Virus record (IMG/VR): IMGVR_UViG_3300048587_000084
Coordinates: 1-63,927 of that record
DNA length: 63,927 nt
Reading direction: 5' to 3' (one strand)
Origin: a virus
Taxonomy: Duplodnaviria; Caudoviricetes
Under the pieces are notes generated by a model. The model was given only the letters and a program-made list of their open reading frames with translations, ran no database searches and was not told the DNA's origin. Positions 3,690 through 46,714 of the stretch are shown here, piece by piece (the first letter of the stretch is position 1; each line of letters begins with the position of its first letter). The position numbers and the translations under genes are program-made.

Positions 3690-5791
3690 ATGGCACCCGG
3701 TTGTTGGTTGGCATTCGCGATGACCTGGTCGGCAGTTGGTGCAAACGGCAGCATCTGCGCGATCAGTTGCGCGGTGGTCAGGGCCTTGCCCTGTGTATCG
3801 ACTCGCTGCGACTCCGCATCTGCGAGTAGCTTCTTGGCCTGCGCTTCGGTGTACGTAACATTGGCGCCGCGCTCGCGCTGCACCATGGCCTGTTCCTCAG
3901 CTGCAGCCTGTTCCTTCTGCTGTCGCTTGGCCTGCTGCTCGGGATCGTTCTCGGATCCTGGGTCAGCGTGTCCGTTCAACTCACGGATGCGCTTGACGAT
4001 CACGTCCTTGCCCGGCAGGTCGGTCAGGTCAATGGCCAGATCCAGCAGCTGCAGGCCGATCTGCGGATCCAGCTGACCGATCGTCTCCATCAGCTGCTCG
4101 GCCATCGCGAGGCGCATCGTTTCGCGGTAGTCCTGCGCGTCGACCACGAAATCAGCCTGCTGCGCCGTGATGTCGTTGTGGTAGGTCCACTCACCGGTGG
4201 TTTCATCGAACACCGGCGTATTGATCTCCATCCAGTCGATGGAATGCTGGTTCTCTGTGATCCGGAACTGCATCGGCCCGGTGCAATACTGCTCGGCCAG
4301 GCTTAGTACCTTCTGCCCGCTGATTTTGAACGCGAGCCTGTAGTTGTCGAACAGCGCCGCGGTGGTCAGCGCGCCTTCGCTCTGCTTGGCCTGAATCGCC
4401 CGGCCGCTCTGGGCATTGGTGTCGCGCCCCAGCTGCTCGCGGTTGACGCCGGTGCCGTCGTGAATGTGCGCGGATGCCACTTCGGCGAGGTTCACCTGCC
4501 CTGCGGCCAGTGCCTCACCTCGAAGGATCTCGAAGCGCTTGCTGCCGGCGCCGTTCTTGGCGCTGTTGAGCTTGATGATGCCGTCCGGTCGCGCGGCGTT
4601 GTCCGCCACGTCGTCCCAGTCGTTGACCGCATCCTCGTCGCCAATGACCTGGTTGGCCGCCAGGTGAAACTGCGCCTTGCTCATGCGCTTGTTGAAATCG
4701 CTCTGCGCATCGCGCACGCCACGAATCACGCCGTAGGGCATGCCGTCGCGGTCGCGCCTGAACCCCCAGTATGGCGTGAGGCTGAACCGGTCATGCCGCA
4801 TCGGCATCTTGTCTGACCGCAGCACCCCGTTCGGAACCCACAGCGCGTAGTGGATTTGCTGCCGGATCGTGTCTGACAGGCTGATCGCCCCATCCTGGTA
4901 CAGCTTCACCAGATCCGGGTTGCTCGGATCAAACCACTGGCCGTGATTCCCACCGTCTCGCGCCGTGATGCGCTTGGCCGCCACCGGCTTGCGGAACTGC
5001 GTCTCGATGATCGTGACGCGCATACGCAGGCCGTAGGGCGCGATCCCTGCCCAGTTGCGCGATACCCTTGTGCGGCCGAACTCGTCCGCCCGCAGCCACA
5101 GCTGCGGCACGTCCTCGTCCGACATTTCATCGTCGATGTCGAAGCCGAGCCGGCCCTCGATGTTCGCTGCCGACTGAATCAGCGCCTCGTGCTCCGGGAA
5201 CATCGCCACCGCATATTCCACGTCAAGCGTGCGGCGCCGATGGATGTAGCGCGCGTCCTTGAGCTGCAGGTGCCGTGAGTGCGGGTCCAGCCACACATTG
5301 CGCCATGACTCGTGCTCGCACAGCACCGGCGGGTCGTTCGGGTCTGTCGTGACCGTCTCATCGGTCCAGCCGATGCCGACCTTGACCTGATCCTCGAATG
5401 CGCGTGAGCGCTCCCAGCTGAACCCGTTGACGTCGTCCAGATACTTCATGAAGGCCTGTTTGGCCTTCGCCGGCTCCGTGTCCTGCGGTCCACGCGGGCG
5501 GATGTTCCAATCCAGCCGGCTGCGTCGCTCCGTTCCCAGCAACCAATCGGTGGCGATCTTGACCTTGTTGAACACCAGCGGCGCCTGGAACCGCGCGTGC
5601 ATTTCCGCGATTTCCTCGGCGGTGTACTGCTCGTGGTCGTAGAACGCGGCGTCGGTCGCCTGCTCTGCGCGGTTCTGGCTGTGCCGATCGCGTGCGTCAT
5701 ACCACCAGTCGCTCAGCTGGCGCAGCAGCGCACTGTCATCCTTGCGCGGCGCTTGCGCGGCCGCGGTCGGCGTCGCCGGCTCCATGATCAT
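3686..5791 (-). CDS. portal protein (P22/933W-like)
   Basis: 701 aa. FYDHEQY, PLVFNKVK, GIGW, PYGVIRGVRDAQSDFNKRMSK, SGRAIQAKQ motifs. Confidence 0.9.
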   Translation of the reverse strand: MIMEPATPTAAAQAPRKDDSALLRQLSDWWYDARDRHSQNRAEQATDAAFYDHEQYTAEEIAEMHARFQAPLVFNKVKIATDWLLGTERRSRLDWNIRPRGPQDTEPAKAKQAFMKYLDDVNGFSWERSRAFEDQVKVGIGWTDETVTTDPNDPPVLCEHESWRNVWLDPHSRHLQLKDARYIHRRRTLDVEYAVAMFPEHEALIQSAANIEGRLGFDIDDEMSDEDVPQLWLRADEFGRTRVSRNWAGIAPYGLRMRVTIIETQFRKPVAAKRITARDGGNHGQWFDPSNPDLVKLYQDGAISLSDTIRQQIHYALWVPNGVLRSDKMPMRHDRFSLTPYWGFRRDRDGMPYGVIRGVRDAQSDFNKRMSKAQFHLAANQVIGDEDAVNDWDDVADNAARPDGIIKLNSAKNGAGSKRFEILRGEALAAGQVNLAEVASAHIHDGTGVNREQLGRDTNAQSGRAIQAKQSEGALTTAALFDNYRLAFKISGQKVLSLAEQYCTGPMQFRITENQHSIDWMEINTPVFDETTGEWTYHNDITAQQADFVVDAQDYRETMRLAMAEQLMETIGQLDPQIGLQLLDLAIDLTDLPGKDVIVKRIRELNGHADPGSENDPEQQAKRQQKEQAAAEEQAMVQRERGANVTYTEAQAKKLLADAESQRVDTQGKALTTAQLIAQMLPFAPTADQVIANANQQPGAI

Positions 5792-29272: not shown

Positions 29273-30001
29273 TCAGGGGGCAGCCATACCCAGCTGCCCC
29301 TCCAGCCGCGCCCGGATCCGCTTGTCCACGATGACCCCGTTGTCAGCCTGCGCGCTGTAGCGTGCGCGCGACTCCAGGCTGCGGCGGATGCTTTCGCTGG
29401 TGATGGCAAGCTCCGGGTAGGTGCGACTGAATGCGCGCATCTTCTGCAGTACGGCCTCGCGCGCGTCGACGTCGCCCAGGCGCCATGCCAGCGCGAAGGC
29501 ATCCATCAGGCGCGATCGGCGGCTGAGGATCGCCTGCTCGTAGTTCTTGATGTCGCGCGCGGTGTCGTAGGCGTTGGCCACGCTCGCCGGGCTGAACCCT
29601 GCGATCTGCGCTAGGCTCTCGAACACATTGAGGTCTTCGACGATCGCGTCGCCGCGGATGTTGTTCACGCCCTCGTCGAGATACCGCAGCGACTTCATCG
29701 CGTCCTTGAGCGCTTTGGGCATCATGGTTTCGACGCCACGCCACACGTGTCCCTCGCTCATCAGCTGCTGGCCGCGGAAGAAGTTGGTGATCATGCCGCC
29801 CATGGGGCCCGCCGCCTGCTCGAACAGATAGTTCGACCACGCGCGCCCTTCCAGCTCCCGATCGGGCTCGCGGAACCACAGATCGCTCATGCTCACGCGG
29901 CTGGCGATGCCGACACCGGTTAGCGCCTGAACTGGTCCACGCAACACCGCCTCGGATCCAGTATCGCCCAGCATGTCGCGCAGGAACGCGCGCGCCGTCA
30001 C
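29273..30001 (-). pseudogene. orphan paralogue of the giant protein's C-terminal about 240 aa
   Basis: aligns to 31298-about 32017 at about 66% aa identity (by hand); ORF intact but no RBS visible. Confidence 0.85.
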
Positions 30002-31297: not shown

Positions 31298-34200
31298 CTA
31301 CTGGGCCATACCGAGCTGACTTTCCAGCCTTGCCTTGATCCGCGGATCAACTACCACACCGTTCTCCGCCTGCGCGCTGAACCGTGCACGCTGCTGGAAG
31401 CTCTTGCGAATGCTGTCGCTGGTGATGGCCAGCTCTGGGTACTTGCGGCTGAACGCCATCATCTTGACGCGCACGTCTTCCTGCGCGTCGGTATCGCCCA
31501 GGCGCCAGGCCATGGCAAAGGCGTCCATCAGGCGGGTGCGGCGGGCCTTGATGTAGTCGGCGTAGCCCTTCACGTCGCCTCGGATGTCGTAGGCGTTGGC
31601 CACTGCGGCCGGCGCCATGCCCATAAGCTGGGCAATGGTCGGGATCACGCCCAGGTCATCCACCACCGGATCGCCGCGCATGTTGTTCACGCCCTCATCC
31701 ATGTAGCGCACGGCCTTCATCGCGTCCTTGATGGCCTTGGGCAGCATGGTTTCGACGCCGCGCCACACCTGACCTTCCTCCATGAGCTGCATGCCGCGCA
31801 GCGCACTGACGAACATGCCGCCCGCCACAGGGCCCGCTGCCTGCTCCAGCCAGTAGTGAGCCAGCGCCTGCCCTTCCATCTCGCGATCTGGCGAGCGGAA
31901 CCACAGTTCGCCCAAGCCAACGCGTGAGGCGATGCCCATGCCGGTGGCGGCCTGCACCGGCCCGCGCATGACGTACTCGGCGCCCTTCTCGCCCAGCATC
32001 TCGCGCCAGAATGCGCGCAGCTCGGTTTCAGCGTCCCACGGCTCGTCATCGTCGCCGAAAGCTGCTGCCAGCGCGTTCATGATGCCCATGACCATGCCCA
32101 TCATCGGCAAGCCCATGGTGCCGGAGAACAGCGCCGTCATCCCCAGCGTGCCGGTCAGCGCGCGCATGTTTTCCTTGCGGGTTGCGGGATCAGCGTCCTT
32201 GAGCGACTTCCACGCCATGCGGCCCAGCAGCCAGGTCATGCCCATGCTGTACTGCTTGAACTGCAGCAGCACCTTGGCCACGGCGCCGCGCATGTAGCGG
32301 CTGCGGTTGGACGCGCTGTAGTCGAAGTGGGTCTGGTTGACCGCCTTGTCGCCCAGCTCGATCGCCATGTCGTGGCTCTTGCCGGAGGCGCGCGCCATCC
32401 GGTAGGTGGCCAGCGACGTGGACTCACGGTTGACCACCTCGGCGCGGTGGAATAGGAACGAGGCCCAGCTCAGCGCCTTGTGCAGCATCGGGTTGTAGGT
32501 GTGCGTATCGGTTTCGCTCAAGCCTGCCAGGTTGTGCACCTGCGACTTGTCGAACGTGCCGCGGCGCTTGAACTCCGCGTAGGCGCGCTGCTCATCGTCG
32601 GTGAGCGCGCCCGGTCCCTCGATCTTGTCGGTATTGCCCAGGGTACGTGCCGACTGCTTGAACCCGCGCCACAGCTCGCGCGCGGCGACGTCGAAGCCAT
32701 AGCGCGCGCCGAGCACGGGGAACGACACCATGGCCGTCTGCAGCAGGTTGACCAGCGCGGCAGCGGGTGACACGGCCAGATACCAGAGGAAGCCTAGCGT
32801 GGTGAGCTTCTGCGCGGCGCCGGAGTCCTGCGGGTTCATCACCCACTCGTGCCGGTCGCGCAGCTCGCCCACCAGCTGCCCCGCCTTGTTGGCGTCCGGG
32901 CTGTCCACCTCGGCCATGCTGTCGGCCAGCGCCTGCGCCTTCAGTACCTGCGCATCCAGCTTGTGCGTGTATTTCAGGCGGGCAATCTGGTAGCTGCTGT
33001 GAAACACGTGGCTGGCCAGCGCGCGCACCACGTCCTCGCTGAATCCGGGCGTGCCCTTGCGATGGATGAAGTTCTTGCGCATGGACATTTCCGGCAGCGT
33101 CGTCAGGTACAGCTGATAGACGTCGTTGCGGATCTTGTCTGGCGCGTGGCTCTCCTGCAGCACTTTGTCCACCTCGGCGATGAACGATGCGCTGGCGCCT
33201 TCGAGCTGCCGCGTCATCTTCGACTTCACGCCGCTGCTGATTCGGGTGTAGCCGGCCGCGCTCAGGCGCTTTTTCACCATCCGCTGTTCTTCGGTGGACT
33301 CCTGCATGTGGAACTCGCGCGTGCCATCTGGCGCGGTCGCGGCCACAAAGTATTCGCCCCAGCGCGACAGAGGCACGTAGAACGGTACCCGGTTGCTTTC
33401 AAAGTTCAGCTTGAGCTGCGCGATCATCCGCGCCTTCTGGCGGTCGTCGGTGATGGCCGCTTTCAGGCTTTCCATCAGCGCGTCCTGATACTTGTCGCTC
33501 TGCGAGGCGTAGGCGTCGCGCAGCTCCACCCACAGCTTTTTGCCCTCGGGCGACAGCTTAGACCAGATCGGCTTCATGGCTGCGTGCGAGTCAGCGCGCT
33601 TTTTCTCCTGCGCCAGCATCTTCTTCGCCTGCTTTTTGCGCGCGATGAAGTGCTGCGCCGAGCCCGGCGACATTTTGGCCAGGTTGTCCATGAGCTTGGT
33701 GAACGCCTTGACGTTCGCCGGGGTCACGGGCTGGTTGCTCTGCTCGGTGGCGTCCAGCATCAGCAGCGGCTGGTGATCGGCCGCCGGGTCGACGCCGGCC
33801 AAGGTCGCATCCATCAGCATGCGGTACATCTTCAGCGCCTCGGCCTTGTTGGCGCCCTGGTACTTCATGGCGCCTTCGACAATGTCGATGCTCACCTGCT
33901 GCAGCTCATTGCGCAGCGTCTGCATGTGCTGCACGGTGTCCGCGTATTCGGCCACCGGCGGCAGCAAGTCCTCACCAAGCTCGCCAAGGTGGCGTAGCTG
34001 CAGCGCGCCGAGTGCAGCCGGGCGCCAGTCGGCGGCCTTGTCCTTGAGGCGCTGCAGCAGCGTCGTGTCCTTCGGGCTGATCGCTTCCTGGAGGCGGTCG
34101 ACGATGGTGGGCTCGGAGCCTTTGGCGAATAGTGCCCCTTGACGTGGCGCAACATCAGCAACCGAGTCATGCTCGATCGCGATCTTAGTTGGCGACTCCA

Positions 34201-37200
34201 TCACGGCACCCCACGCGCGACGCATGTCCTCTATCGCCACGGCGTTCGTTGCGTTATCAGCAAGGTAATTGGTCATCCCGCGAAGCATTGCGCGCGCTCC
34301 ACTGAAGCGCTGTCGACCAAGGAATACATCGTTGATCTGAGGCGATAGTGGCCGAGGCCCCTTCATGTTCGGCGTCATCCCAAGCGAGCGCTCTCGATGA
34401 AACGTCTCGATTGTTGCCCTACCAACAGAGTCGACGCGTGCAATCAGGTAGCGGCCATCCATGCGATTCACCCGGATGTCAGCAGTTGGCTTTTCGCCAG
34501 TCAGGTCAAGGTCGACGTACTCGACCTCCCACCCAGCATCACGCATAACCCGATTGAGCTGGATCGCGCGCTTGTTAACCGGCGCGGCGTCCTTCCCCTT
34601 CGCGAACAGCGCCTGCCCCCCAGATGCGCCAAGCCCCTCGCTGGGAGGGGCTTGGCGGGTGTCTTGCTGGTCGGGTGATGGCGGAGGCTCATCCATCAGA
34701 TCCAGCGCCATTCGTCCGCGCTTGCGAACGTCCGCGCCTGGGAACTGGCTATGAATCGCCTCCGCAGACTCCTCTTCGTTCGCGCGGTCAAGGGCTGCGT
34801 AGGCGATCTCCATGTCGTCGAAACCAGCGGCAGTTAGACGCTGGTACTCATTGGCCGAAACATCCACGATTGGCAGCTTGTGCCCGCGCTCGGCAGCGAC
34901 TGAGGCGCGGTTGTGACCATCAAGAATCTCGCGCGTCCCATCGTCCTGCAAGATCGTGACCGCAGGGAAATACTCGTCGCCTGGGAAGTCTTCACGTACC
35001 GCATCAAGTCGGTTCTGTTCCGACTCACGAAACACCAGTTCGGCAGGATCGACAAGCGTGCGCTTCATGCCCCCAACGCTACCACCATCCTTTCCAAAGC
35101 TATACCGCTCCATCGCCTCCCGCTGCGTCGTCGGCTCCGGCCGCCCAAGGATCTTCTCAGCGCTCGATCGATACGCACGCCCCTCCAGCTTCTGCCCAGC
35201 CTCCCACAGCAGTTGCCGCAGCTCGCCATGGCTCAGCTCCAACTGCGGGAACAGCTTTCGCAGCCACGCGCGCACGGCGTTCATGGCGCGCTGCAGGATG
35301 CTTGTCTGGATGTTGCGCTCGGCGAACACGGCGATCGCCTCGCTGGCGAAAGTCGCATCGTTCAGCGGCCGGAACGTGCCATCGGCGTTGCGCTCGTAGC
35401 GCCTTTCCACCTCGGCGAACACCTCGGGCCACTTGCCGCGGTCCTTCAGCGACACAATGCGGTCGGTCAGCTCGCGGAACAGCTTGGGCCCCAGCATCTG
35501 CTCCATCGACAGATGCCCCACCATCTCGTGCGCGAACAGCTTGGCCGCATGCTTCGGGCTGCGGATGCGAGCGGCCACGAAGTACACGGTCTTGCGGTCG
35601 CCGGTGATGGCGGCCTGCACCGTGTCGTCATAGTCGTCCTGCGCAACCACCTCGGGCGCCACGCTGGCCAGCTCGGCGCCGTTGGCGACCACCACCACGC
35701 GGATGCCCTGCTCCTGCATCGCATCTGCAGCGCGCTTGAATTGAGCCTGCAGTGCAGCCTTGCTCAGTCCGCGCGCGCCGGCATCGCCAGCGCCGCGGGC
35801 GTACAGGATGCTTTCTAGCTCTGACCCGCGTAAGCCAGCGCGGCCGAGCTGAAGCAGGCGCGTAACCACCCCTCGCCATGCAGGCGTGCCTGCTCTGCGT
35901 TCCAGGGATCGCGACACCACTCCACGACGAAGCGTTGATACTCCCGCTCGCGCCGCTCTGCCTGCTGGGGACTCGGCGAGTGTTTGGAAATCAGCGCGCG
36001 TAAACGGCTTTCCGCTTGCACCAACGAATTGTCCGCTGTCCCAGTCATAGTCGATCGCCTGCAGGTCTGGCACGTTGTCGACGACATTGTCTGCCGAAGC
36101 GCGGATCAGCTCAAGCAGGTTGTTCTGGTCGTCGCCCTCGATCCAGTCGAGCCCCTGGTCCTCGTGCGGCAGCATGTGTTTCGTGGTGCCGGTCTTGAGC
36201 GCGCTTGACAGCATGTGCTCGCCGCGGCGCTGCATCGCGGCCTCGCTGACGTCGGCCGGGTCCGGAATGAAGGTGATGCCGTTGTTGTGCGCATAGGCCA
36301 GCGCGATCGAGTACAACGCGCTGCCACGGTGCACGCCTTCCTGTAGCTGGCTGGCGTCCATCGCCAGTTCGCCATCAAGGATGGTCATGGTCACGGCCTT
36401 AGGCTTGCCAAGCGGGTTCACCTTGACGCCGGTGAGCGCGCGCACGTGCGTGTTGAGCCCGGCGGATCTGCCGGCGGTGCCGCTCTGCGCAAGCAGGCGG
36501 TCGGCGATCTCTTGCCCGAACTCCGTCACCACGTCCGCACGGCCGTTCACCGGCATGCTGAACGCCTCTTTGCCGTCTTTGGTGTAGCCGAACAGCGTTC
36601 CGTGACCAATGTCCGTTGGCGCAATGCCCACGCCACCGCTGGTGCGCACGTATTCCACCCGAACCAGCGTGGTGCCCATGTCGCGGGCGACGTTGCCGGC
36701 ATCATCCTTCTGCGGCTGCACCGTGATCGTGGCGCCGTCGTCCACCTCCACCACCTCAGCATCCGGAAGGATCGCCTTGGTGATGTCCTCGAAGCTCTTG
36801 GCATACGTGCGCGGGCGCTGGAACGTGCCGGGGATCTCCGCCAGCGCCTGCCAGGCGCGCGCCGTGGCGGGGGTGAACTTGGGGGCGTCGGCGGACTTGG
36901 AGAAGCTGGCGCGGTTTCCGCCATCTAGCTTAGCGATCTCCGCGTCGAGCTTGTCCTTCGGGAAGGCTCTCTGTTCAAGCGCGGTTTTGATTGTGCCGCG
37001 ATTCTCGACGATGGCCTTGTTTGCCGCCTCGATGGCTGCCTTGCGCGTCTTGCCGAGCCCAACACGCAGCCCGGTTGTTGCCTCCATGATCTCGAACTGC
37101 CCGCTATCTCTGCCAACGCCTGGGGCGATGTAGAACTGGCCATCTGGCATCTCAGACAACTCGATGCTCTTGGCGTTCGGCTCGTGCACGATATCGCCGC

Positions 37201-40200
37201 CAAAGTTGCGGAAGTACGGCCGACTACTCACTACACTACGCGCCGGTGTCGACTCGATACCTGCGGCAGGCGGCGCCGGTAACGCTGGCGCAGCATTGGA
37301 AACATTCGTCTGGACGACAGTCTCCGGGGTCGGCCCCGTGCCGTCCTTCGGCGTCTCGCCTGGCTTAGCGTGCACGATCGGCGCCTTGAACTCGCGCTGC
37401 TCGTACAGCGGCATGCCTTGCGCGTCCTTGGCGTCAAGGTACGGGATTACGACCTCCCCGCCCTTCGCGTCTTGCGCGATGACAAACCACCCGGCGCCGT
37501 TCCAACGATGGCCGGTCACGACGAATGCCGTTCCGTTCCACCGCACCTTAGTATCAATCGCGGCGCCGTTGCGCAGCCACGCCGGCGGCGGCACCGGGTT
37601 GAGCTGGATGTCCTTTTCAAGATTGAGCAACTGCTGCTCGGCGCGCTTGAGTTGATCGGCGCGCTGGAACTTCTGCCCCGCCACTTCGTCAAGTCGCTGG
37701 ATTGTTTCGAGAGCCGGTTGAATCCGCGCGCGCAGCTTGTCGACTGTGCCCGTGTACGCCCGCAGTGACGACTCCAGGCTTGCCACCGATGCGGCGCCCG
37801 TCGCGACTTCCTCTCCGGCAACCACTGCGACGAATACCGGGGCCTCATAGAAGCGAGGCCACGCCACATGCAGCGGCAGGCCGCCGTATGAGCCGATGCG
37901 CATTGGATCGGCGCCGGTCCTCATGTTGGCGCCGATGAACTTGCCGATCGCCTCGTTCGCCTCCTTGCGCTCGGAGATCTCTACGCCGTCGACTGTGATT
38001 CTGAACTTGTCGCCAGCATGGTCAGCAACCGCCTTGGCGGCCATTTCTTGGGCGCCGGACTTCTCGATGCGATCGATCTCGGCCCGCTGACGCGCCAAGC
38101 CGTCGCGAGCGTTGCGCGCGGTGCTCTTGGCATCCGCCACGCCTTGCGTGTGCAGGCGCTCGCGCTTTTGCAACTGCTCAACTTGCGCGACCAGCTTTTG
38201 ACGAATCAGAACGCGCGGATCACCGGCAGCTTCGGCAAACGTGCTGATGATGTCGCTTTCCTCATCGGATGCAGCGTCGCCCTCAATTACGCGAGTGTCC
38301 CCGTCGGCCTTCAGGAAGTCCGTAATGAACTTCTGTTTGATGGCCAGCACCTGCCAGCGCCGCCCGTCGATGCGGTCGGTGATGTACCGGTACTCCATGA
38401 CCGTGTTCCACTGGTTGCCCTGGCGGTGCCCGCGGCCGTTGCGTTGCTCCAAGTCGCCAGGCATCCATGGCGCGTCCAGGTGGTGCATGGCGCGCAAGTT
38501 GCGTTGCATGTTGACGCCAACGCCAAGGGACTGCGTGGAGCCGATGACGATGCGCACCGTGCCGGCGTTCATGGCGTCGGCGATCTCCTTTCGCCTGTCC
38601 TTGCTGGTAGAGCCGTCGACGATCTCGATCTCTGAACGCGGGACGCCCTGCTGCACCAGGCGTTCAACCATATCTCTGATGGGCGAGAACACCTTGACCT
38701 GCCTGCGCAGCGTTACCCCGTCCGCGTCCTTGATCGTCCCGCCTGCGGCGTCACGCAGTGCGCGGTTGGCTGTAGTTCCAAGCCCGGTGTTGGTGAACAC
38801 CACTTGCGTAGCGCGCGTGTCGCTGCGGTAGATCTCCAGCAGGTTGCGGATGGCGCGAGATACCTTGCTGTCCGGGTGATCTGGGACGTTGCCCTCCTTG
38901 CCTGCCAGCGCCTCATCGTTTTCCATGCGCGCGTCGAAGCTCGCGCGCGCCGCCAACTGCTCGTAGACGATCGGGACAACCGGCAGTCCGGCCGACATGG
39001 CGTCACGACGTGCCTTGCCGCCCATGTTCCGCCACTCATTGGCAAGCGACTGCACGCCTTCGAAGATCCGCATCTGATCTGGCGTTGGGTCCGCCGTCTC
39101 GTTGACCACCTTCTTGTATGGCCTGTCCTTGGCGCCCTCGGTGCGTCCGTTCAGTAGCTCGGCGCGCTCCCGCTCGGTCAGGCTTTGATCCGCCAGCAGC
39201 TTGCCGGATGCGGTTCGACGCGGCTGCATTTCCGGCATGTCGTCGGAAAACACCACGTCCATGTATTGCCCGACCATCTTGCGCAGCTCGGGCACGTTGA
39301 TGAACCCGCGCAGCCTGTTGACCGCCTCATAGTCGCCGGCTGCGGTGAGTTCCACGTCCTGAATTTCTTTGGCAAACGATCCAAACCACCCGTCCCACTG
39401 ATCCACACCCACCGCGGCCATTTCGTCGGCCATGATGTAGCGCATTTGGTGGAAGATCTCGGTCAGGGTGTTGGTGATCGGTGTCCCGGTGAACAGGTGG
39501 ACGTTGCCGCCATTGTTCTGCTCGCGGACGTAGCGCGTCAGGAAACTGAGCTGGATCGAGCCCAGGGACGATTGGGTCTGCAGCCCTTTCATCTTCATGC
39601 GTGTGGCGATCGGCGGCTTCTTGAACTCGTGCGCCTCGTCGACCAGCACCATGTCGATGCCCAAATCCTCGAACGGCACAGCGCCTTCGCGCGATGACTG
39701 CTGCGCCTGCTTCTTGATCGTCTCGATGATGCGTGCGCGGGCCTTGACCAGTTCCTTGGCGGTTGGCGATCGCAGCTTCTTCAGTTCGTCCGGGTCATCC
39801 AGCATTGCGTCGGTGAAGTTCTGGCCATCGTCGCTCGCAGCCAGGCGGGCCTCCGCCTCAAGCGCTTCGATTTCCTCTCGGGCCATGGCCATGAGCGTTT
39901 CCTCACGGAAGGACAGGCGCTCAATCAGCGAGTGCGGCAGCACAATCAGATCCCAGTCGTCATTGGCGATCTGCCGCAAGCGCACGTCGATGGCCTTGGG
40001 CGACAGGTTGTCGATGTAAAGCACCTTCGCCGCCGGGTACATCATTTGGATTTCAGACGCGACGGACTTACTGTTGGCATTGTGTGCCAGCAGAACAGGC
40101 TTCTTGGCGATGCCGTACCTGCGCGACTCGACTGCAATGCCGCCCATGGTGAAGGTCTTGCCGGTGCCGACCTCATGGGCGTTCAGGGATCGGCGCATGA

Positions 40201-43200
40201 CCAGCGCGCGCCAGATGGCGTTGACCTGGTGCTGGCGCAGGTCGAAGGGGCCGCGACCGACGCTCAGCGCCATGCCGTCGAAGTTGAGGAACGAACCATC
40301 GAACGACGGCGAGGCGTAAGCGTTGCGCACCTCGTTGTATTCGCGCTCGATCTCGATCCGGCGCTCGGCGTCCGACCATAGCCAGTCGCCGAACTTCTCC
40401 CGCATATCGGCAATCTTGGCGTTGGTTTCGTCCGTTGCGGTCTGGTCGACAAACTCGCGCCCGTCCCGGTCCCTCTCCTTGATCACAACCGTCTGGTTGC
40501 TGATGGCCGCGTTGACCAGCTTTCCGAATCGGTAGTACCTGGTCCCGAAGCCGGTCTGTGCCTCCGTGGAACGCTGCAGGCTAGGATCGACCGTCACCTT
40601 CCAGCGCCCCATGGTGTAATTGGCGGAGATCCCGTCAGTGTCGCCGCGGTTGAGCATGTGCGCGACAAACTGCTCGTAGGCGCGCGTCGGAACCCAGGTG
40701 GCGCCCATCTGCACTTCGATGTTGAAGTACGGAATGTCGGCTGGCTGCACTTTCTCCAGCGCCTCCACGTTGCGCTGCATGGCGTCGTTGCCATCGGCCA
40801 GCGCCACCTTGGCCTGACGCAGCTTCTCGCGCACGTTGCCGGACAGGTACATATCGGACGGCACGATGTCGCCGCCCGGCGTCTCGAACACGGCGCCGCT
40901 GTCCACAAGCTCGGCGCGCACCATGGCTTCCGGCTTCTGGGCGATCTTCGCGATCTCATCCAGGGATGGGTTCACATTGCCATTGCGCGCCAACACAAAG
41001 GCATCGCGGATCGATGGGTTCGTGATCCGTTTCGCTGACCGGATGGTGCTTTGCGACAGGATTGCAGCCGGGCGGTAGGTGTTGCCGTCCTTTGTTTCCA
41101 GCGCCGCAAGGGCGTAATAGAACGGGTCGTCGATCCTCTCCAGGTAGCCCAGGCCGAAGCTCTCACTCATCGGGCCATATGCCTTGACGAAAGCCTCGTA
41201 CCGCTCCCGTAGTTGCGTGCGGATCGGATCTGGCGCTGCCCCCGACGTTCCGCGCTCGGCTTCGATCAACTGCCCGTAGGACTTGCGCATGTCGATCAAC
41301 GCATTGAGCTGAGCCTCGCGCGCGGCGGTGTCCTTCTGGCTCTTGACCTGATACTTGAGCACCTCATGAGCTGGCGCCAGGTGTTCCCCGCGGACGATGA
41401 ACAGCCCGGCATCGGTGCGCGTGAGCGCCCCCTCTCGGTCGCTGGTGTGATTGGCGATGTAGCTGACCGCATCCTGGCGCGTCGCGGACAGGTAGGCGCC
41501 TTCCGGGACCATCGACACGATGCGGTCGAGCTGCGCCTGCATGTCATCCGGGCGGTGCACGATCATTCCGGGGCGGAACGTGGTCGTCCCGTGGCCATAG
41601 TCGATGGTCCCCACCACGCTTTGCGGGTTGTTCTGGTAGTAGGCGTTGACGCGGACCTTTTCGCCAGCTGGCGTGTCCATCTCGACCGTATCGACCCACG
41701 CCTCGCCGTCCACGTTCGACGCGGGCTCGGGCCGCTTGCGCAACACGATGATGTCAGTGACAACCTTCGTGCCTGCGTAGTTCTCGAAGGCCCCGGACGG
41801 CAGGCGGAAAGATGCCAACAGCTCGGCCTTCTTCGCCAGCTCACGGCGCACCACGGTGCCCTTCTTGTCCATGGACCCAGCGGACGTAATGCCGATCACA
41901 ATGCCGCCCGGCCGCACTTGGTCGAGCGTCTTCAGGAAGAAGTAATCGTGCAGCATTGGGTTCAGGCGGTTGTACCGCCGATCGGCGACCGGGGTGTTCT
42001 CGAACGGCCAGTTGCCGATCACCAGGTCATAGAAGTCGTCTGGCGTCTTCGAGTCCTGGTAGCCCATCACCTTGACCGTGGCGTCAGGGTAGAGCATCTG
42101 AGCCATGCCGCCAGTCACCGGGTCAAGCTCGATGCCGGCGAGCTTGCTGCGCTCTTTCAGGTCCAGCGGCATCATGCCAAAGAAATTGCCAATGCCCATT
42201 CCGGGCTCCAGCACGCGCCCTCCTTTGAACCCCATGCGCCGCACCATTTCCCACATAGCCATGACGGTTGGCGGGTCGGTGTAGTGCGCGTTGGTGATCG
42301 AGCGCTGCAGGCCTTCCCAGTCCGACCTGCCAAGGTGATCGCGCAGCCATTGGTCGCGCTGCTCCCATCCCTGCTTTGGCTGCGGGTATGCCCAGCTGCC
42401 CTGAAACAGATCCTGGCCAAACGAGCCCCAGCCGGTGTATCCGGCCAAGACCTCCTGTTCCTCGCGGGTTGGCCGGCGGCCTTCGTCGCGCAGCGCGACG
42501 AACAACTCGATAGCGGCCTTGTTCTTGTTGAAGCGCGCGACCTGCCCACCGCCGACGATTTCAAGCGGGTTGGCAATGTGGAAGTTGCCGGGGCCTGGGT
42601 TTGCCGGACTGACAGTCTCCGGCTTGGTTACGCCTGGGCGATCTGTTCCTCTTGTGCTTCCGGCTCCAGCATCAGGTGATTTCTTTCTGCCTGCTCCCTT
42701 GCGTCCGGTGCCGGCATTCCCGCTTCCCTGAGACTCTTGCTCTCCTGCCACATCCTCTGTTGGAGAACGAACGCCAGCGGCACTGCCAGATTGTTGCGCT
42801 CCAGGCTTCGCCACATCTTCGGACTGTGCAGCCGCCACGTCTCCAGTATCCGGCGGTGCATTTCCAGATTGTGCATCACGCTCTCGTCGTTCTTGAGCGC
42901 CTGATACTCCTTCCTGATCGCCGCCGCGAACGCTGGGCTCAGTTGGCTTTGGTGCTGCATCGGTGCTGTCCTCCGTGACGTCATCTTGCGCCGGTGCTGG
43001 CGTGCTGTCCACCACCGCATTCTCAACGCTGGCCGCGCTGTCCATACCATCGAAGCCAGCGGCGCGCGGGTCGTACTTCACTCCCATGTACCAGCTCTTG
43101 AGGTACGGCTTTACCGCGTCGCCCAGGTCGTCGACCATCGCCTTGGCGTAGGCCGCGAACGTGCGCGCGCCGCGCTCGATGTGGTACATGCCAAGCGTGA

Positions 43201-46200
43201 TACCGTCGAGCATCATTTCCGGGTCGATGCCGCTGTTCAGCCGGTTGAACTTGGCTTTCAGGCGCGCACGCGCGGCCTCGGCGTCGGCGTCGGTAACGAT
43301 GGTGTTGGCGGATGGTGCGGGCTTGGCCTTTGGTTGCTCGGTCGGCGCTGTGTCTTTGGTGGCTGCAGCTGATTCCTCTGCAGTCATGAACTCCCGCTGC
43401 AGAACACCGCGGTCGATCTGCATGCCTTGGCGTGTCGGCCGCATGCTGACCGTCTCGAAGATGCGAACTCCGCCCTGCGCATACCAACGCACACCGCGCT
43501 CGTCCTCGCGGATCATTACGCCGTCAGCGCGGCGTCCGACAATGCCTTTCTCTGGCTGTGCCGGCGCTGGCGCAGCTTCCACCACCTCTATTTGACGGCT
43601 ACTTGATTGCTTGGCCTGCTCCCGCTCAATCGCCGCACGCACGTCCGCGGCCTGCACCGTCCTCGGCTTGAGGTTGTACGTCACCCCGTCCAGGTTCTTC
43701 GCTTCGGACTTGATCTCCCCAACGATCTCCTGCGCGCGCTTTTTCGTGACCTTGAGCGTATCGCGCACGATCGCAATGGCGTCGCTGCGCAGAATGATGT
43801 TGCGCTTGCTCAGCAGCGCTTCCGGCTTGGCTGCTTCGGCGGCTGGCCCGGCCTCGGCTGCTTGCTCGGTGCGTGGGGCTTCTTGCTTGGCATTGGTCGG
43901 CTCCTGTGCGGCCGCGGTCGCCGCAGTCGCGCCATTGGCCTGCGCCGCCGCCCGCCGCTTCACTTCCGCGATCGTGATCGTGGTGCGCTCCGGCGTGGTG
44001 CGAACTGCCTCCCACACCGCTTCCTCGGCTTTTGTCAGGGTATCCACGCTGATGTTGCCGAGCACCGGTCGATCGTCGCCTTTGGCCTTCACGGCGGCTG
44101 GCGTTGCTACCTGCGCAACCTGTAAGCCTTCCTTACCAGTTGCCTCCGACGTGTTCGCTTCTGGCGCTTTTGCTGACACGTCCGGCGCAGCCGTCAAGGA
44201 TTCCTTGACAGCTCCCACTTTTGGCACCCGCACCACAAACCCGCCATCCACCTCGATCACCTTGCCGCCCGGCGTCCTCTTGGCCGCAGCATCGGCCGCG
44301 GTGCGAATCGTCCACGGCGAGCCACTTGGAGGCGTAATATCGCCTTCCAACTGGTCCGTGCTGGTATCGTATGACTGAGTTTCCGCCGCCCCCTGCGTTC
44401 CGACCGCCACCGATGCGGATGTTTGCGAACTACCAGCTTGGAGTGGCGTGCTACCAGCTTGCGCAGCTGCAGTTTCAGGTTGATCAACTGAAGTGGATTG
44501 AACAGCTGCGGCTGATGCAGTCGGAACGGCTTGTGCAGTGGTCGCTGCCGCCAGATCCTGACTGGCACTCGCCTTCGCCGCTGTAGCCTTCCGCTTCTGC
44601 GCCAGCGCCTGCCGCATCTGATCCACGCGCAGCGGCGTAACGCCGAGCTTCTTGGCCATCGCCATCATGCTTGCGCCGTCGATGGGCTTGCCAGCGTCGA
44701 TGTTGGCCTGCACTACAGCCTGAATATCCGCGTCGGTGGTCTTGAGCGCTTCGGCCTGCGCGTCTTTCTCGGCTTGCCGGCGGTCCTTGTCCGCCTGGCG
44801 CGCGGCTTTGTCGGCTTCCTTGGCCTGCTTCTCGGCGACCTTCTGCTGCTGCACCTGCGCGCGCTCGGCCTCGGCCTGCTGCGCGGCCTGAGCCTGCAGC
44901 TGCTGATCCTGCTCGGTCTGCACGCGCTGCTGCTCGGCGATCGCTGCGGCACCGGTGTCGAACGCGGCCGCAGCGGCCGCCGACGTCGGGCCTGCTGCCG
45001 GATCTGGCCGCGGCGCACGCGTGAGCGCGCTTTCGCGCTTCGCTTCCATCTTCGCCTGGAACGCTGCCGGGTCCGGCGGCGTGGATAGGCGCGTGATCGG
45101 CGTCGGGCCTGCCGGTGCCTGCGCAGTCCCCTGCGCTTCCGCAGCGGCGGCCACTGCGGAGGCCTCCGGCCCACCACGCACGGCCGCTTCGAGCGCCTTC
45201 TGCTGCTCGGCCGCCTGCGCCTTCTTGTCGAGCTTGGCGATTTCCTTCGGGTCGACCACGGTGCCAGTTGCCGGATCGACCAGCAGCTTGCGGCCCTTGC
45301 CCTTCTCCCATCCGCTCACGTAGCCCAGCCGTTCCAGCTCCGCGAACAACTGTTGCTCGGTCTGCCCGTCGATGTTCAGCTTCTGCGCGAGCTTGCCCTT
45401 GCCCGGTACCTTGCCCTTTGTGGTCGCCAGCACCGCCATGGCATCGGCCACCAGGTCGCGCTCTGGCGATGCGGCCGGAACCTGCGCCGCGGTGTCCGCA
45501 ATCAACGGCGGGGCAGCCGGGGCAGTCGTTACTCCCGGCGCCGCACCAGTCGCCACCGCAGTCTCCGCGGCCGCGCCAACCGGTCCGGACGGGCGCGTGA
45601 TCGGCGCTGGCACCGGCGTAATCGCTTGGCTGGCCAGTTCTTCTGGCCGCGGCTCTGGCGCCGTGCTGATATTTGCCGGTGTCGGTGGCGCCTTCGGCTG
45701 CACTTCCGGTGGCCGCGCGAGCGCACCCGCTGGCGCGCCGAGCGCGAAGCCACCAACAGCGCCAAGGCCTGCTTGCTCGCCCACACCCTCGAACGCGGCT
45801 GCATTCGGGTTGACGGTCTGCTCGGCAAGATTGCCGAACAAGCGTCCGCCACCTTCCTCGATGGCTTCCTGAGTTGCCTCGCCAAATCCGCCCTTCGCTG
45901 CTCCGATTACGCGCCCCATGCCCGGTAGCGCATTGCCCGCACCAGCGACCGCACGTTCCAGTGCCCTGGCGCCCGGAAACACCTGACTGGCCAGCGACAC
46001 GCCGGCCGCTCCGGGAAATGCCGTGCGCGCGGCGCCAAGTGCCAAGGCCTCACGAACCGCGGCCGGATCTTCGCCAGCGTCCACGCGCTGCAGGTATTCC
46101 GGGTTGCTCTGCCACACCTCCGGCTTCGCGTCAGACACGCGCTCGTAGGTGCCGGCAGATGCGTCGGCGCCGGCCTGTGCTGCGCCCGTACCAACGCCAG

Positions 46201-46714
46201 CAGCCACGCCAACCAGTGGACTCGCCAGCGCGCCAATACGGCCAGCAGCGAACGCCGGCACCATGCTCGCCGCCGTCGACGCAGCCGTGTCCACAAACAG
46301 CGCAGGGTCTGTGATCGTTTCCGCGATGCCGACGCCGAACTTTGCCAGCTCGCCATCCGCCGAGTTGATCGCATCCTGACGCTGCTGCCGCTTGAGCTTG
46401 AGTTGCGGGCTAATGCCTGCATCCCAGTATTCGCGCGTGCTCTGACCAGTGCGCGTGATCGGGTTGTTCATCTCGCCGGTGGCGAGCCCCGCAAGCGTCC
46501 CGATGTTCTCCACGGCCGAGCCCACACCGCTGGCCAGCGCGCGGCCGGTGTCGGCGATCGCGGTGCCCATGGAACGCGTGATTGGCGGCGGCTTGGCAAT
46601 GCCGGACAGGATGTCCGCATACCGACTTGCCTTCGGCTTTCGTTGCGCATCAGGTGCGCTCTGGACAGCAGGACTCTGCGGCTTTACGCCGAGAATGTCG
46701 TCATAACGACCCAT
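31298..46714 (-). CDS. 5138-aa DarB-like large polyvalent virion protein (N6 methyltransferase, SNF2 helicase, GNAT-like, zincin, ParB-like, PLxRFG)
   Basis: VLEPGMGIGNF and VIGNWPF (about 42000-42220); AHEVGTGKT, VDEAHEFK, LEQRNGRGHRQGN (about 38400-40200); RGSALYSIA (about 36300); AHEMVGH (about 35520); ILDGHNR (about 34920); VPLSRWG (about 33365). Confidence 0.9.
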   Translation of the reverse strand: MGRYDDILGVKPQSPAVQSAPDAQRKPKASRYADILSGIAKPPPITRSMGTAIADTGRALASGVGSAVENIGTLAGLATGEMNNPITRTGQSTREYWDAGISPQLKLKRQQRQDAINSADGELAKFGVGIAETITDPALFVDTAASTAASMVPAFAAGRIGALASPLVGVAAGVGTGAAQAGADASAGTYERVSDAKPEVWQSNPEYLQRVDAGEDPAAVREALALGAARTAFPGAAGVSLASQVFPGARALERAVAGAGNALPGMGRVIGAAKGGFGEATQEAIEEGGGRLFGNLAEQTVNPNAAAFEGVGEQAGLGAVGGFALGAPAGALARPPEVQPKAPPTPANISTAPEPRPEELASQAITPVPAPITRPSGPVGAAAETAVATGAAPGVTTAPAAPPLIADTAAQVPAASPERDLVADAMAVLATTKGKVPGKGKLAQKLNIDGQTEQQLFAELERLGYVSGWEKGKGRKLLVDPATGTVVDPKEIAKLDKKAQAAEQQKALEAAVRGGPEASAVAAAAEAQGTAQAPAGPTPITRLSTPPDPAAFQAKMEAKRESALTRAPRPDPAAGPTSAAAAAAFDTGAAAIAEQQRVQTEQDQQLQAQAAQQAEAERAQVQQQKVAEKQAKEADKAARQADKDRRQAEKDAQAEALKTTDADIQAVVQANIDAGKPIDGASMMAMAKKLGVTPLRVDQMRQALAQKRKATAAKASASQDLAAATTAQAVPTASAAAVQSTSVDQPETAAAQAGSTPLQAGSSQTSASVAVGTQGAAETQSYDTSTDQLEGDITPPSGSPWTIRTAADAAAKRTPGGKVIEVDGGFVVRVPKVGAVKESLTAAPDVSAKAPEANTSEATGKEGLQVAQVATPAAVKAKGDDRPVLGNISVDTLTKAEEAVWEAVRTTPERTTITIAEVKRRAAAQANGATAATAAAQEPTNAKQEAPRTEQAAEAGPAAEAAKPEALLSKRNIILRSDAIAIVRDTLKVTKKRAQEIVGEIKSEAKNLDGVTYNLKPRTVQAADVRAAIEREQAKQSSSRQIEVVEAAPAPAQPEKGIVGRRADGVMIREDERGVRWYAQGGVRIFETVSMRPTRQGMQIDRGVLQREFMTAEESAAATKDTAPTEQPKAKPAPSANTIVTDADAEAARARLKAKFNRLNSGIDPEMMLDGITLGMYHIERGARTFAAYAKAMVDDLGDAVKPYLKSWYMGVKYDPRAAGFDGMDSAASVENAVVDSTPAPAQDDVTEDSTDAAPKPTEPSVRGGDQEGVSGAQERRERDAQSGNAPPDTGDVAAAQSEDVAKPGAQQSGSAAGVRSPTEDVAGEQESQGSGNAGTGRKGAGRKKSPDAGAGSTRGTDRPGVTKPETVSPANPGPGNFHIANPLEIVGGGQVARFNKNKAAIELFVALRDEGRRPTREEQEVLAGYTGWGSFGQDLFQGSWAYPQPKQGWEQRDQWLRDHLGRSDWEGLQRSITNAHYTDPPTVMAMWEMVRRMGFKGGRVLEPGMGIGNFFGMMPLDLKERSKLAGIELDPVTGGMAQMLYPDATVKVMGYQDSKTPDDFYDLVIGNWPFENTPVADRRYNRLNPMLHDYFFLKTLDQVRPGGIVIGITSAGSMDKKGTVVRRELAKKAELLASFRLPSGAFENYAGTKVVTDIIVLRKRPEPASNVDGEAWVDTVEMDTPAGEKVRVNAYYQNNPQSVVGTIDYGHGTTTFRPGMIVHRPDDMQAQLDRIVSMVPEGAYLSATRQDAVSYIANHTSDREGALTRTDAGLFIVRGEHLAPAHEVLKYQVKSQKDTAAREAQLNALIDMRKSYGQLIEAERGTSGAAPDPIRTQLRERYEAFVKAYGPMSESFGLGYLERIDDPFYYALAALETKDGNTYRPAAILSQSTIRSAKRITNPSIRDAFVLARNGNVNPSLDEIAKIAQKPEAMVRAELVDSGAVFETPGGDIVPSDMYLSGNVREKLRQAKVALADGNDAMQRNVEALEKVQPADIPYFNIEVQMGATWVPTRAYEQFVAHMLNRGDTDGISANYTMGRWKVTVDPSLQRSTEAQTGFGTRYYRFGKLVNAAISNQTVVIKERDRDGREFVDQTATDETNAKIADMREKFGDWLWSDAERRIEIEREYNEVRNAYASPSFDGSFLNFDGMALSVGRGPFDLRQHQVNAIWRALVMRRSLNAHEVGTGKTFTMGGIAVESRRYGIAKKPVLLAHNANSKSVASEIQMMYPAAKVLYIDNLSPKAIDVRLRQIANDDWDLIVLPHSLIERLSFREETLMAMAREEIEALEAEARLAASDDGQNFTDAMLDDPDELKKLRSPTAKELVKARARIIETIKKQAQQSSREGAVPFEDLGIDMVLVDEAHEFKKPPIATRMKMKGLQTQSSLGSIQLSFLTRYVREQNNGGNVHLFTGTPITNTLTEIFHQMRYIMADEMAAVGVDQWDGWFGSFAKEIQDVELTAAGDYEAVNRLRGFINVPELRKMVGQYMDVVFSDDMPEMQPRRTASGKLLADQSLTERERAELLNGRTEGAKDRPYKKVVNETADPTPDQMRIFEGVQSLANEWRNMGGKARRDAMSAGLPVVPIVYEQLAARASFDARMENDEALAGKEGNVPDHPDSKVSRAIRNLLEIYRSDTRATQVVFTNTGLGTTANRALRDAAGGTIKDADGVTLRRQVKVFSPIRDMVERLVQQGVPRSEIEIVDGSTSKDRRKEIADAMNAGTVRIVIGSTQSLGVGVNMQRNLRAMHHLDAPWMPGDLEQRNGRGHRQGNQWNTVMEYRYITDRIDGRRWQVLAIKQKFITDFLKADGDTRVIEGDAASDEESDIISTFAEAAGDPRVLIRQKLVAQVEQLQKRERLHTQGVADAKSTARNARDGLARQRAEIDRIEKSGAQEMAAKAVADHAGDKFRITVDGVEISERKEANEAIGKFIGANMRTGADPMRIGSYGGLPLHVAWPRFYEAPVFVAVVAGEEVATGAASVASLESSLRAYTGTVDKLRARIQPALETIQRLDEVAGQKFQRADQLKRAEQQLLNLEKDIQLNPVPPPAWLRNGAAIDTKVRWNGTAFVVTGHRWNGAGWFVIAQDAKGGEVVIPYLDAKDAQGMPLYEQREFKAPIVHAKPGETPKDGTGPTPETVVQTNVSNAAPALPAPPAAGIESTPARSVVSSRPYFRNFGGDIVHEPNAKSIELSEMPDGQFYIAPGVGRDSGQFEIMEATTGLRVGLGKTRKAAIEAANKAIVENRGTIKTALEQRAFPKDKLDAEIAKLDGGNRASFSKSADAPKFTPATARAWQALAEIPGTFQRPRTYAKSFEDITKAILPDAEVVEVDDGATITVQPQKDDAGNVARDMGTTLVRVEYVRTSGGVGIAPTDIGHGTLFGYTKDGKEAFSMPVNGRADVVTEFGQEIADRLLAQSGTAGRSAGLNTHVRALTGVKVNPLGKPKAVTMTILDGELAMDASQLQEGVHRGSALYSIALAYAHNNGITFIPDPADVSEAAMQRRGEHMLSSALKTGTTKHMLPHEDQGLDWIEGDDQNNLLELIRASADNVVDNVPDLQAIDYDWDSGQFVGASGKPFTRADFQTLAESPAGRAARAGVSTLRRGVVSRSLERRAGTPAWRGVVTRLLQLGRAGLRGSELESILYARGAGDAGARGLSKAALQAQFKRAADAMQEQGIRVVVVANGAELASVAPEVVAQDDYDDTVQAAITGDRKTVYFVAARIRSPKHAAKLFAHEMVGHLSMEQMLGPKLFRELTDRIVSLKDRGKWPEVFAEVERRYERNADGTFRPLNDATFASEAIAVFAERNIQTSILQRAMNAVRAWLRKLFPQLELSHGELRQLLWEAGQKLEGRAYRSSAEKILGRPEPTTQREAMERYSFGKDGGSVGGMKRTLVDPAELVFRESEQNRLDAVREDFPGDEYFPAVTILQDDGTREILDGHNRASVAAERGHKLPIVDVSANEYQRLTAAGFDDMEIAYAALDRANEEESAEAIHSQFPGADVRKRGRMALDLMDEPPPSPDQQDTRQAPPSEGLGASGGQALFAKGKDAAPVNKRAIQLNRVMRDAGWEVEYVDLDLTGEKPTADIRVNRMDGRYLIARVDSVGRATIETFHRERSLGMTPNMKGPRPLSPQINDVFLGRQRFSGARAMLRGMTNYLADNATNAVAIEDMRRAWGAVMESPTKIAIEHDSVADVAPRQGALFAKGSEPTIVDRLQEAISPKDTTLLQRLKDKAADWRPAALGALQLRHLGELGEDLLPPVAEYADTVQHMQTLRNELQQVSIDIVEGAMKYQGANKAEALKMYRMLMDATLAGVDPAADHQPLLMLDATEQSNQPVTPANVKAFTKLMDNLAKMSPGSAQHFIARKKQAKKMLAQEKKRADSHAAMKPIWSKLSPEGKKLWVELRDAYASQSDKYQDALMESLKAAITDDRQKARMIAQLKLNFESNRVPFYVPLSRWGEYFVAATAPDGTREFHMQESTEEQRMVKKRLSAAGYTRISSGVKSKMTRQLEGASASFIAEVDKVLQESHAPDKIRNDVYQLYLTTLPEMSMRKNFIHRKGTPGFSEDVVRALASHVFHSSYQIARLKYTHKLDAQVLKAQALADSMAEVDSPDANKAGQLVGELRDRHEWVMNPQDSGAAQKLTTLGFLWYLAVSPAAALVNLLQTAMVSFPVLGARYGFDVAARELWRGFKQSARTLGNTDKIEGPGALTDDEQRAYAEFKRRGTFDKSQVHNLAGLSETDTHTYNPMLHKALSWASFLFHRAEVVNRESTSLATYRMARASGKSHDMAIELGDKAVNQTHFDYSASNRSRYMRGAVAKVLLQFKQYSMGMTWLLGRMAWKSLKDADPATRKENMRALTGTLGMTALFSGTMGLPMMGMVMGIMNALAAAFGDDDEPWDAETELRAFWREMLGEKGAEYVMRGPVQAATGMGIASRVGLGELWFRSPDREMEGQALAHYWLEQAAGPVAGGMFVSALRGMQLMEEGQVWRGVETMLPKAIKDAMKAVRYMDEGVNNMRGDPVVDDLGVIPTIAQLMGMAPAAVANAYDIRGDVKGYADYIKARRTRLMDAFAMAWRLGDTDAQEDVRVKMMAFSRKYPELAITSDSIRKSFQQRARFSAQAENGVVVDPRIKARLESQLGMAQ
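35815..36048 (-). CDS. putative nested gene (+1 frame, 77 aa) inside the giant gene
   Basis: MTGTADNSLVQAESRLRALISKH...; GC3-rich codons, while the host frame switches to rare AGA/CGA/GGA/GTA codons. Confidence 0.5.
   Translation of the reverse strand: MTGTADNSLVQAESRLRALISKHSPSPQQAERREREYQRFVVEWCRDPWNAEQARLHGEGWLRACFSSAALAYAGQS
42628..42960 (-). CDS. putative nested gene (+1 frame, 110 aa, TnpV-like pattern) inside the giant gene
   Basis: GGAGG-N9-ATG; RRILETWRLHSPKMWRSLE...AREQAERNHLMLEPE; the host frame here is a low-complexity linker. Confidence 0.72.
   Translation of the reverse strand: MQHQSQLSPAFAAAIRKEYQALKNDESVMHNLEMHRRILETWRLHSPKMWRSLERNNLAVPLAFVLQQRMWQESKSLREAGMPAPDAREQAERNHLMLEPEAQEEQIAQA

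Follow-up and report, generated by a model that had tools for sequence, protein, structure and literature searches.

The DNA analysed here, called the window throughout, is a complete virus record of 63,927 bp (IMG/VR IMGVR_UViG_3300048587_000084, Caudoviricetes) bounded by direct terminal repeats, in which a single open reading frame (ORF) of 5138 amino acids (aa) on the minus strand (31298..46714) specifies a giant polyvalent protein of the DarB-like virion/antirestriction type. A short second ORF (77 codons plus a TAG stop, 35815..36048, minus strand) lies wholly within this giant gene, on the same strand and in its +1 frame, where it covers giant codons 3556-3634 at the end of a module that carries the Pfam domain LPD37. 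We consider it probable (about 0.8), from the comparison of related sequences, that a genuine protein-coding gene of the overlapping (overprinted or embedded) type lies at 35815-36048, with both frames under selection, and that the stretch most likely encodes two proteins, one of which was overlooked by standard annotation. The reading as dual coding is drawn from the open +1 frame, the rare A/T-ending codons used by the giant frame, the preserved start codon, and the conservation of both translations beyond expectation. The giant frame would here encode the helix and linker at the C-terminal end of the LPD37 module, while the +1 frame would encode a separate protein of ~75-105 aa with a conserved core of ~40 residues.

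Position and codon composition of the nested ORF

The LPD37 module occupies aa 3269-3641 of the giant frame (35792..36910, minus strand), between the junction motifs ASFSKS and ILYARG. The Pfam model PF18853 matches the giant frame with 161.8 bits (E = 2.7e-47) at aa 3436-3607 (35894-36409), above the gathering cut-off of 27 bits that was used as the threshold for LPD37 membership. A preliminary description of this DNA, made from the letters alone, had called the module GNAT-like; this label finds no support in the sequence, as all 13 aligned module sequences match LPD37 only and none of them matches a GNAT or other acetyltransferase family at E ≤ 1. No solved relative of the module was found by sequence. 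The nested ORF overlaps the C-terminal part of the LPD37 match and ends directly before ILYARG (aa 3636-3641, 35792-35809, minus strand), the start of a downstream peptidase module with the HExxH-type motif HEMVGH (35513-35530, minus strand).

Its ATG (36046..36048, minus strand) is formed by the giant-frame Tyr3556 codon TAT followed by GAC for Asp, and its TAG (35815..35817, minus strand) by CTA, a rare codon for Leu3633, followed by GAA for Glu. The boundaries of the 77-codon ORF are thus those given in the preliminary description, which had also placed the stop 6 nt before ILYARG; the stop is indeed close to this motif, at a distance of 5 nt from its first codon. An in-frame ATG further upstream, at 36087, would add 13 codons at the N-terminus (36049..36087, minus strand) and result in a 90-aa form. 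It arises from a rare Asn codon (AAT) followed by GTN and is also present in the homologous loci L011 and L012. From stop to stop, the nested +1 frame runs for 96 codons. The giant gene contains 22 stop-free stretches of at least 77 codons in the +1 frame, among which the nested ORF ranks 16th, and 21 in the +2 frame; when synonymous codons are resampled with the giant protein and its codon usage kept, the stretch stays open with a probability of 0.12. The length of the ORF by itself is no evidence, and the comparison with relatives is decisive.

The composition of the giant frame changes over the ORF. Giant codons 3556-3633 form the second-lowest distinct 78-codon window of the gene for codon adaptation (rank 32 of 5060 sliding windows), and the rare codons AGA, CGA, GGA, GTA, and TCA, which had been pointed out at first inspection, are all found there together with TTA and CTA. 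The GC content at third codon positions (GC3) of the giant frame falls to 0.55-0.60 over the nested ORF vs. 0.79 gene-wide, while the bases that are third in the +1 frame keep a GC content of 0.72-0.81. Over the dual-coded conserved core (35837..35965, minus strand; giant aa 3584-3626), Leu, Arg, and Ser account for 43% of the giant-frame residues (Arg alone for 22%) and CGA codons occur; low-degeneracy residues make up 10% in the giant frame, compared to 36% gene-wide and 45% in the nested core. With 90% of its residues of high or medium degeneracy and this share of Arg, the giant frame looks like the one that accommodates the small gene. Other minima of codon adaptation in the giant gene are located at codons 1279-1356, 726-803, 4092-4169, and 3845-3922; those at 1279-1356 and 726-803 overlap long +1 open stretches (149 and 135 codons, respectively), and the giant frame is of low complexity there, as judged by eye.

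Conservation and probable selection in both frames

Relatives with available DNA were collected by an alignment-based scan, which retrieved 6 viral, 3 genome, and 18 metagenome loci (searches with single sequences returned none), and by a Pfam-based scan of one order, in which 8 of 401 genomes contained LPD37; extra loci were taken from named records. The +1 frame is free of stops at the LPD37 C-terminus in 29 of the 30 distinct LPD37 loci, and the ORF is thus kept in nearly every relative. Among them, the 24 distinct loci in which the LPD37 C-terminus is matched in full are open without exception, across 83-154 codons, and the set of open loci further includes L037, the Erwinia phages Pavtok, PEp14, and Stean (90 codons), and a Massilia plasmid (> 200 codons). 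Loci with only 49% GC (L003, L038) belong to it as well. In a codon alignment of 13 homologues (29-60% identity in the giant frame), 13/13 sequences have an open +1 frame over the columns of aa 3556-3626; the +2 frame is open there in 1/13 and the three antisense ones in 0, 2, and 2 of 13, whereas the +1 frame of neighbouring 77-codon control windows is open in 0-4 of 13 (the last windows, past the end of the alignment, were excluded). Synonymous resampling over 75 codons gave a geometric mean probability of 0.167 for an open frame (range 0.006-0.72), with 21/21 loci open; three short fragment loci were excluded from this set.

The dip in GC3 is seen again at the aligned position of the homologues profiled, some of which are only 29-39% identical, and in L011 and L012 the rare codons of the window are found at identical positions (e.g., CGA/AGA, TCA, CTT, GCA, and GTT). 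Plain third-position identity among identical residues did not distinguish the region from its flanks. As codon bias masks the signal, this comparison is blind to it, and resampling tests were needed. In the forward test, the giant protein was held fixed, its synonymous codons were resampled, and the mean pairwise BLOSUM score of the +1 translations was used as a measure of conservation. This synonymous-constraint analysis across homologues, a check that had been proposed at the outset, yielded z = 12-13 for the +1 frame at aa 3584-3621, where the +2 frame reached ~6; pairwise comparison with either of the two closest loci gave z = 5.4 and 6.4 vs. 0-4.8 in control windows. In the reverse test, with the nested protein held fixed, the giant frame was conserved beyond what the nested frame imposes (z up to 10) in the first half of the core; in the second half, absolute scores were low (0.1-0.3 for the giant frame vs. 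1.1-1.3 for the nested one). As both the forward and the reverse test are positive, both frames appear to be under selection.

The +1 translations share the core motif ER..R..E..[S/C].P.[Y/W]A......P.[Y/F]W..[F/L], and their substitutions are conservative at the amino-acid level (W/Y/F, D/E). The invariant Pro of the nested frame lies on giant codons TCC, GCC, or ACC, where the giant residue varies but the silent third base stays constant. A profile of the nested protein was used to align 150 cluster representatives, which form a biased set as they were chosen by this very profile; conservation among them is 0.99 for Pro and Trp, 0.91 for Ala, and 0.81 for two Tyr. The profile also matched the nested translation at loci that had not been used to build it (L029, 5.8e-23; Pavtok, 6.9e-14; L039, 5.9e-11; L036, 3.6e-9). 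When screened against 1.84 billion representatives, it retrieved 257 proteins of 54-233 aa at E ≤ 1e-3 (18 of them at ≤ 1e-10), with no long protein among the 150 matches listed. P0027, a protein from a public collection, has 77 aa and is 90% identical (69/77) to the window product, the differences being mostly N-terminal; one cluster holds a RefSeq "hypothetical protein" of Rhodoferax sp. The 10 database matches that were looked up come nearly all from contigs < 12 kb. In Pavtok, PEp14, Stean, and the Massilia plasmid (its annotation table is known to be incomplete), the giant coding sequence is the sole annotation at the locus.

The giant-frame peptide AGRAARAGVSTLRRGVVSRSLERRAG... resembles an out-of-frame reading, and for this reason a compensated frameshift, by which the giant protein of relatives would include the +1 reading, was considered. 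It was rejected because the alignment of 11 giant homologues runs in the giant frame through all 201 residues of the test segment with 49-72% identity, the giant-frame stretch ARAGVSTLRRGVVSRSLERRAGTPAWRGVV is almost invariant across them, and the nested translation found no match better than E = 4.1 in the same 11 proteins.

The nested start is preserved too. The Tyr codon on which it lies is conserved and is written as TAT in 8 of 9 homologues, while the background share of TAT is 0.11-0.44, and homologues that lack this Tyr have an alternative ATG a few codons away. The Erwinia phages carry GGAG-N7-GTG at the equivalent position, with a predicted product of 74 aa. A good Shine-Dalgarno site is present in these phages and in the groups of L014 and L019; in the window, the ribosome-binding site had been described as weak, and a GGAG-like site was indeed missing 5-12 nt upstream of both ATG 36048 and ATG 36087. 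No sigma-70-like promoter site was detected in 35500-36600.

The nested ORF is bound to one module of the giant gene. The homologues P0014, P0015, and P0019, which do not contain LPD37, share the downstream peptidase module solely from the junction motif on, and LPD37 loci with different downstream domains retain the nested ORF. From the match that begins only at the boundary and the retention beside other domains, it follows that the ORF belongs to the LPD37 module and not to the peptidase module, and the early suggestion that it moves together with its module was borne out across these loci. Four short fragment loci (L040-L042, L044) retain both frames and look like decayed or truncated pieces rather than free-standing genes. 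In the Pfam model of LPD37, the last ~70-80 positions correspond to the dual-coded stretch, and in the fragment loci these positions match alone.

Several observations weigh against a second gene at this place. The sole exception among the 30 loci is L010, in which three stops occur in the +1 frame of the first LPD37 copy. The loci are related to each other, and the raw product of their probabilities of being open overstates the significance. In the forward test, the codon tables of the null were derived from short flanks, and control regions reached z values of up to 7.9, this maximum being found elsewhere in a very conserved block (HMLSSALK) in which codons are still shared. Neither the window nor most of the homologues have more than a weak Shine-Dalgarno site, if any, and the ESM Atlas model of the homologue P0176 is poor (predicted local distance difference test score, pLDDT, of 0.47). 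Most of the database matches (contigs < 4 kb) are probably the same nested loci picked up by gene callers and do not count as independent evidence; the 90%-identical match of the Rhodoferax sp. protein (L029) is likewise nested, inside an open frame of at least 2759 aa, and no stand-alone, non-overlapping copy of the small gene was identified among the sequences compared. Finally, linkage is the one ground on which a function as partner or antidote is proposed.

Some of the loci deserve a description of their own. In L010/L033 (G004), the LPD37 copy without the nested ORF closes its 974-aa gene just past the junction motif, and a second, partial LPD37 C-terminus follows in a frame of 144 aa; its +1 frame contains a 125-codon ORF that weakly resembles the nested one (E = 1.3e-3). 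L042 (positions 1-1760, G045) contains an array resembling clustered regularly interspaced short palindromic repeats (CRISPR), with 22 copies of a 36-nt repeat and ~30-nt spacers at a period of 66 nt; between its last two repeats, which are 378 nt apart, lies an oversized "spacer" of ~342 nt that is a fragment of a polyvalent gene, exactly the LPD37 C-terminus with the nested ORF, both frames being open. In L041 (G065), the fragment with the LPD37 C-terminus and the nested ORF adjoins a downstream gene pair that resembles, by eye, a DinJ/RelB-like antitoxin and a YafQ/RelE-like toxin. On the Massilia violaceinigra plasmid NZ_CP024609.1 (L050, ~2150-2560), the nested ORF is lengthened to well over 120 codons and the giant frame is of low complexity over the extension; the family motif is visible by eye there and was missed by the nested profile. 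L028 (duplicated in L024, L026, and L027) is a distant relative, the similarity of which is confined to the first ~60 residues of the test segment. At ~2173-2571 it has a protein-like +1 ORF of 133 codons beneath a long GC3 dip of the giant frame (0.37-0.47), which is rich in G/S/R/A and of low complexity at this place, and this ORF may be a different nested gene.

Proposed function of the small protein and rival explanations

If the nested ORF is a gene, its translation would start internally on late mRNA from the giant gene, and the product could act in trans as a partner of the LPD37 module. As the nested gene is inherited only with this module, a partner role was proposed (chaperone, packaging adaptor, or inhibitor), which we put forward tentatively, as a possibility that we regard as less than even. 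Family searches with the small protein gave no match in Pfam (best E 0.056-0.11, short of the cut-offs), NCBIfam, or PHROGs, none in PDB by profile, and one match in PADLOC (0.019, in 1 of 16 sequences). In terms of gene assembly, the composition of the giant frame would fit a giant gene welded together by reading through a pre-existing small gene in the other frame, which then served as helix or linker.

The preliminary description had suggested a built-in antidote. In this reading, LPD37 would be a harmful enzyme and the nested protein a cognate inhibitor that guards the producing cell until the giant protein is packaged. Effector and immunity protein would then share ~230 nt in two frames and would be inseparable during module shuffling. 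Production of the giant protein would be safe, and the protein would become armed only once it had been packaged and injected and had left the small protein behind. The strict linkage of the ORF to LPD37, and to none of the neighbouring modules, fits this idea, and the invariant polar residues of LPD37 (D, N, D, R, R, H, and Q) could form an active site. However, the module has no sequence match to GNAT, to any enzyme family, or to a solved structure, the small protein matches no known antitoxin, immunity, or defence family in Pfam, NCBIfam, or PADLOC, and protection of the host would be of limited need for a phage in its lytic phase. The effector-plus-antidote picture is further weakened as LPD37 is not among the LPDs considered probably enzymatic by Iyer et al. 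2017 (PMC5512222), and overall we find an antidote doubtful.

The remaining explanations do without a separate small protein. In a programmed +1 (-2) ribosomal frameshift, some ribosomes would switch from the giant frame to the +1 frame and stop at the module junction, so that a truncated isoform with an alternative C-terminus results. The weak ribosome-binding site would agree with this, as would the +1 stop that lies within ~15 codons of the junction motif in most loci; rare zero-frame codons can favour +1 shifts and were also counted in its favour. Against it stands the start codon, which is kept by rare codon choice in 8 of 9 homologues and preceded by GGAG-N7 (as GTG) in the Erwinia phages. 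Moreover, the nested start of L003 and L025 follows a +1 stop by 1-4 codons, which leaves no room upstream for a frameshift site, and no conserved shift-prone sequence was noticed, although no systematic motif search was made; frameshifting is in our view quite unlikely. Even less credit is given to an untranslated element at the nucleotide level (RNA structure, pausing signal, or recombination site) that would constrain the synonymous sites. It could explain why the +2-frame score is raised as well (z ~6) and why rare codons cluster at a domain boundary, but not why the +1 frame is open in 13/13 sequences while the other four alternative frames are open in 0-2 of 13, nor why the +1 substitutions are conservative; in addition, RNAalifold predicted 0 pairs on 11 sequences, and the only match in Rfam was below threshold and on the other strand. 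A chance ORF in GC-rich DNA would be compatible with the many equally long or longer +1 stretches of the gene and with the probability of an open frame obtained for the window alone, but all the comparative results, including those from the 49% GC loci L003 and L038, speak against it, and it is refuted as far as sequence comparison allows.

Genomic setting, known parallels, and significance

Besides the giant gene, the window contains genes for an integrase, a portal protein, a large terminase, a head-closure protein, and a tail fibre. The giant protein comprises a SNF2-type helicase, LPD37, the HExxH peptidase motif, and LPD39, and its homologue in cultured Erwinia phages carries the annotation "DarB-like antirestriction". 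A junction motif (hydrophobic-[F/Y]-[S/A]-[K/R]-[G/S]) recurs in the giant protein: in addition to ASFSKS at aa 3269 (36893-36910, minus strand) and ILYARG at aa 3636, ALFAKG is found at aa 4035 (34595-34612, minus strand) and aa 4194 (34118-34135, minus strand). The equivalent junctions of homologues read [AP]MFSR and IFYSK, and the motifs may be processing sites of the HExxH peptidase or recombination joints. Directly downstream of the giant gene, a separate ORF of 242 aa (29273-30001, minus strand) matches positions 4407-4637, the very C-terminal end, of the 4647-position PHROG "DarB-like antirestriction" (E = 3e-50); the equivalent segment is fused onto the giant protein in other phages.

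Embedded genes are already known from phages. In lambda, Rz1 lies inside Rz in the +1 frame, and the arrangement described here is similar: a larger phage gene wholly encloses a small one in its +1 frame, and both frames code and are conserved. In contrast to Rz1, the nested sequence has no lipoprotein signal: the signs of an Rz1-type o-spanin (a hydrophobic N-terminal stretch and a lipobox Cys) are absent from the 77- and 90-aa sequences when read by eye. The host gene also differs, being a 15-kb polyvalent protein gene, and the overlap falls on the Pfam domain LPD37 and travels with it. Co-inheritance of a small gene with one module during shuffling is familiar from effector-immunity and toxin-antitoxin pairs (polymorphic toxins, colicins), in which the small gene is linked to a single module. 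The nested gene is likewise inseparable from its module; unlike in those pairs, it overlaps the module instead of adjoining it, it has no family match, and there is no sign that LPD37 is toxic.

High-degeneracy residues, Arg, and CGA are enriched in overlapping genes according to PMC6195259, and in its wealth of Leu/Arg/Ser, of Arg in particular, and of CGA, the giant frame resembles such overprinted viral genes over the core. A difference from those genes is that the accommodating composition belongs here to the long annotated frame and that the small frame looks ordinary. LPD37 (PF18853) was described as a domain of unknown function in polyvalent proteins by Iyer et al. 2017 (PMC5512222), and the words "overlapping" and "frameshift" do not occur in the main text of that paper, supplements aside. 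No description of the nested gene was found in the literature on LPD37 or on overlapping genes in polyvalent proteins, subscription journals being outside the scope of this search. What is new is not an embedded phage gene as such but a widespread family embedded in a polyvalent-protein domain.

If both frames are coding, the last ~70-80 positions of LPD37 would be dual-coded, and the conservation of this Pfam domain would need to be reread. A protein family of at least 257 sequence clusters would be missing from annotation, including that of three cultured Erwinia phages. The locus would also provide a testable case for the assembly of giant polyvalent "antirestriction" genes via reading through small genes in another frame, and the small protein may be a candidate accessory factor for virion-delivered proteins, the folding, packaging, and activation of which are poorly understood.

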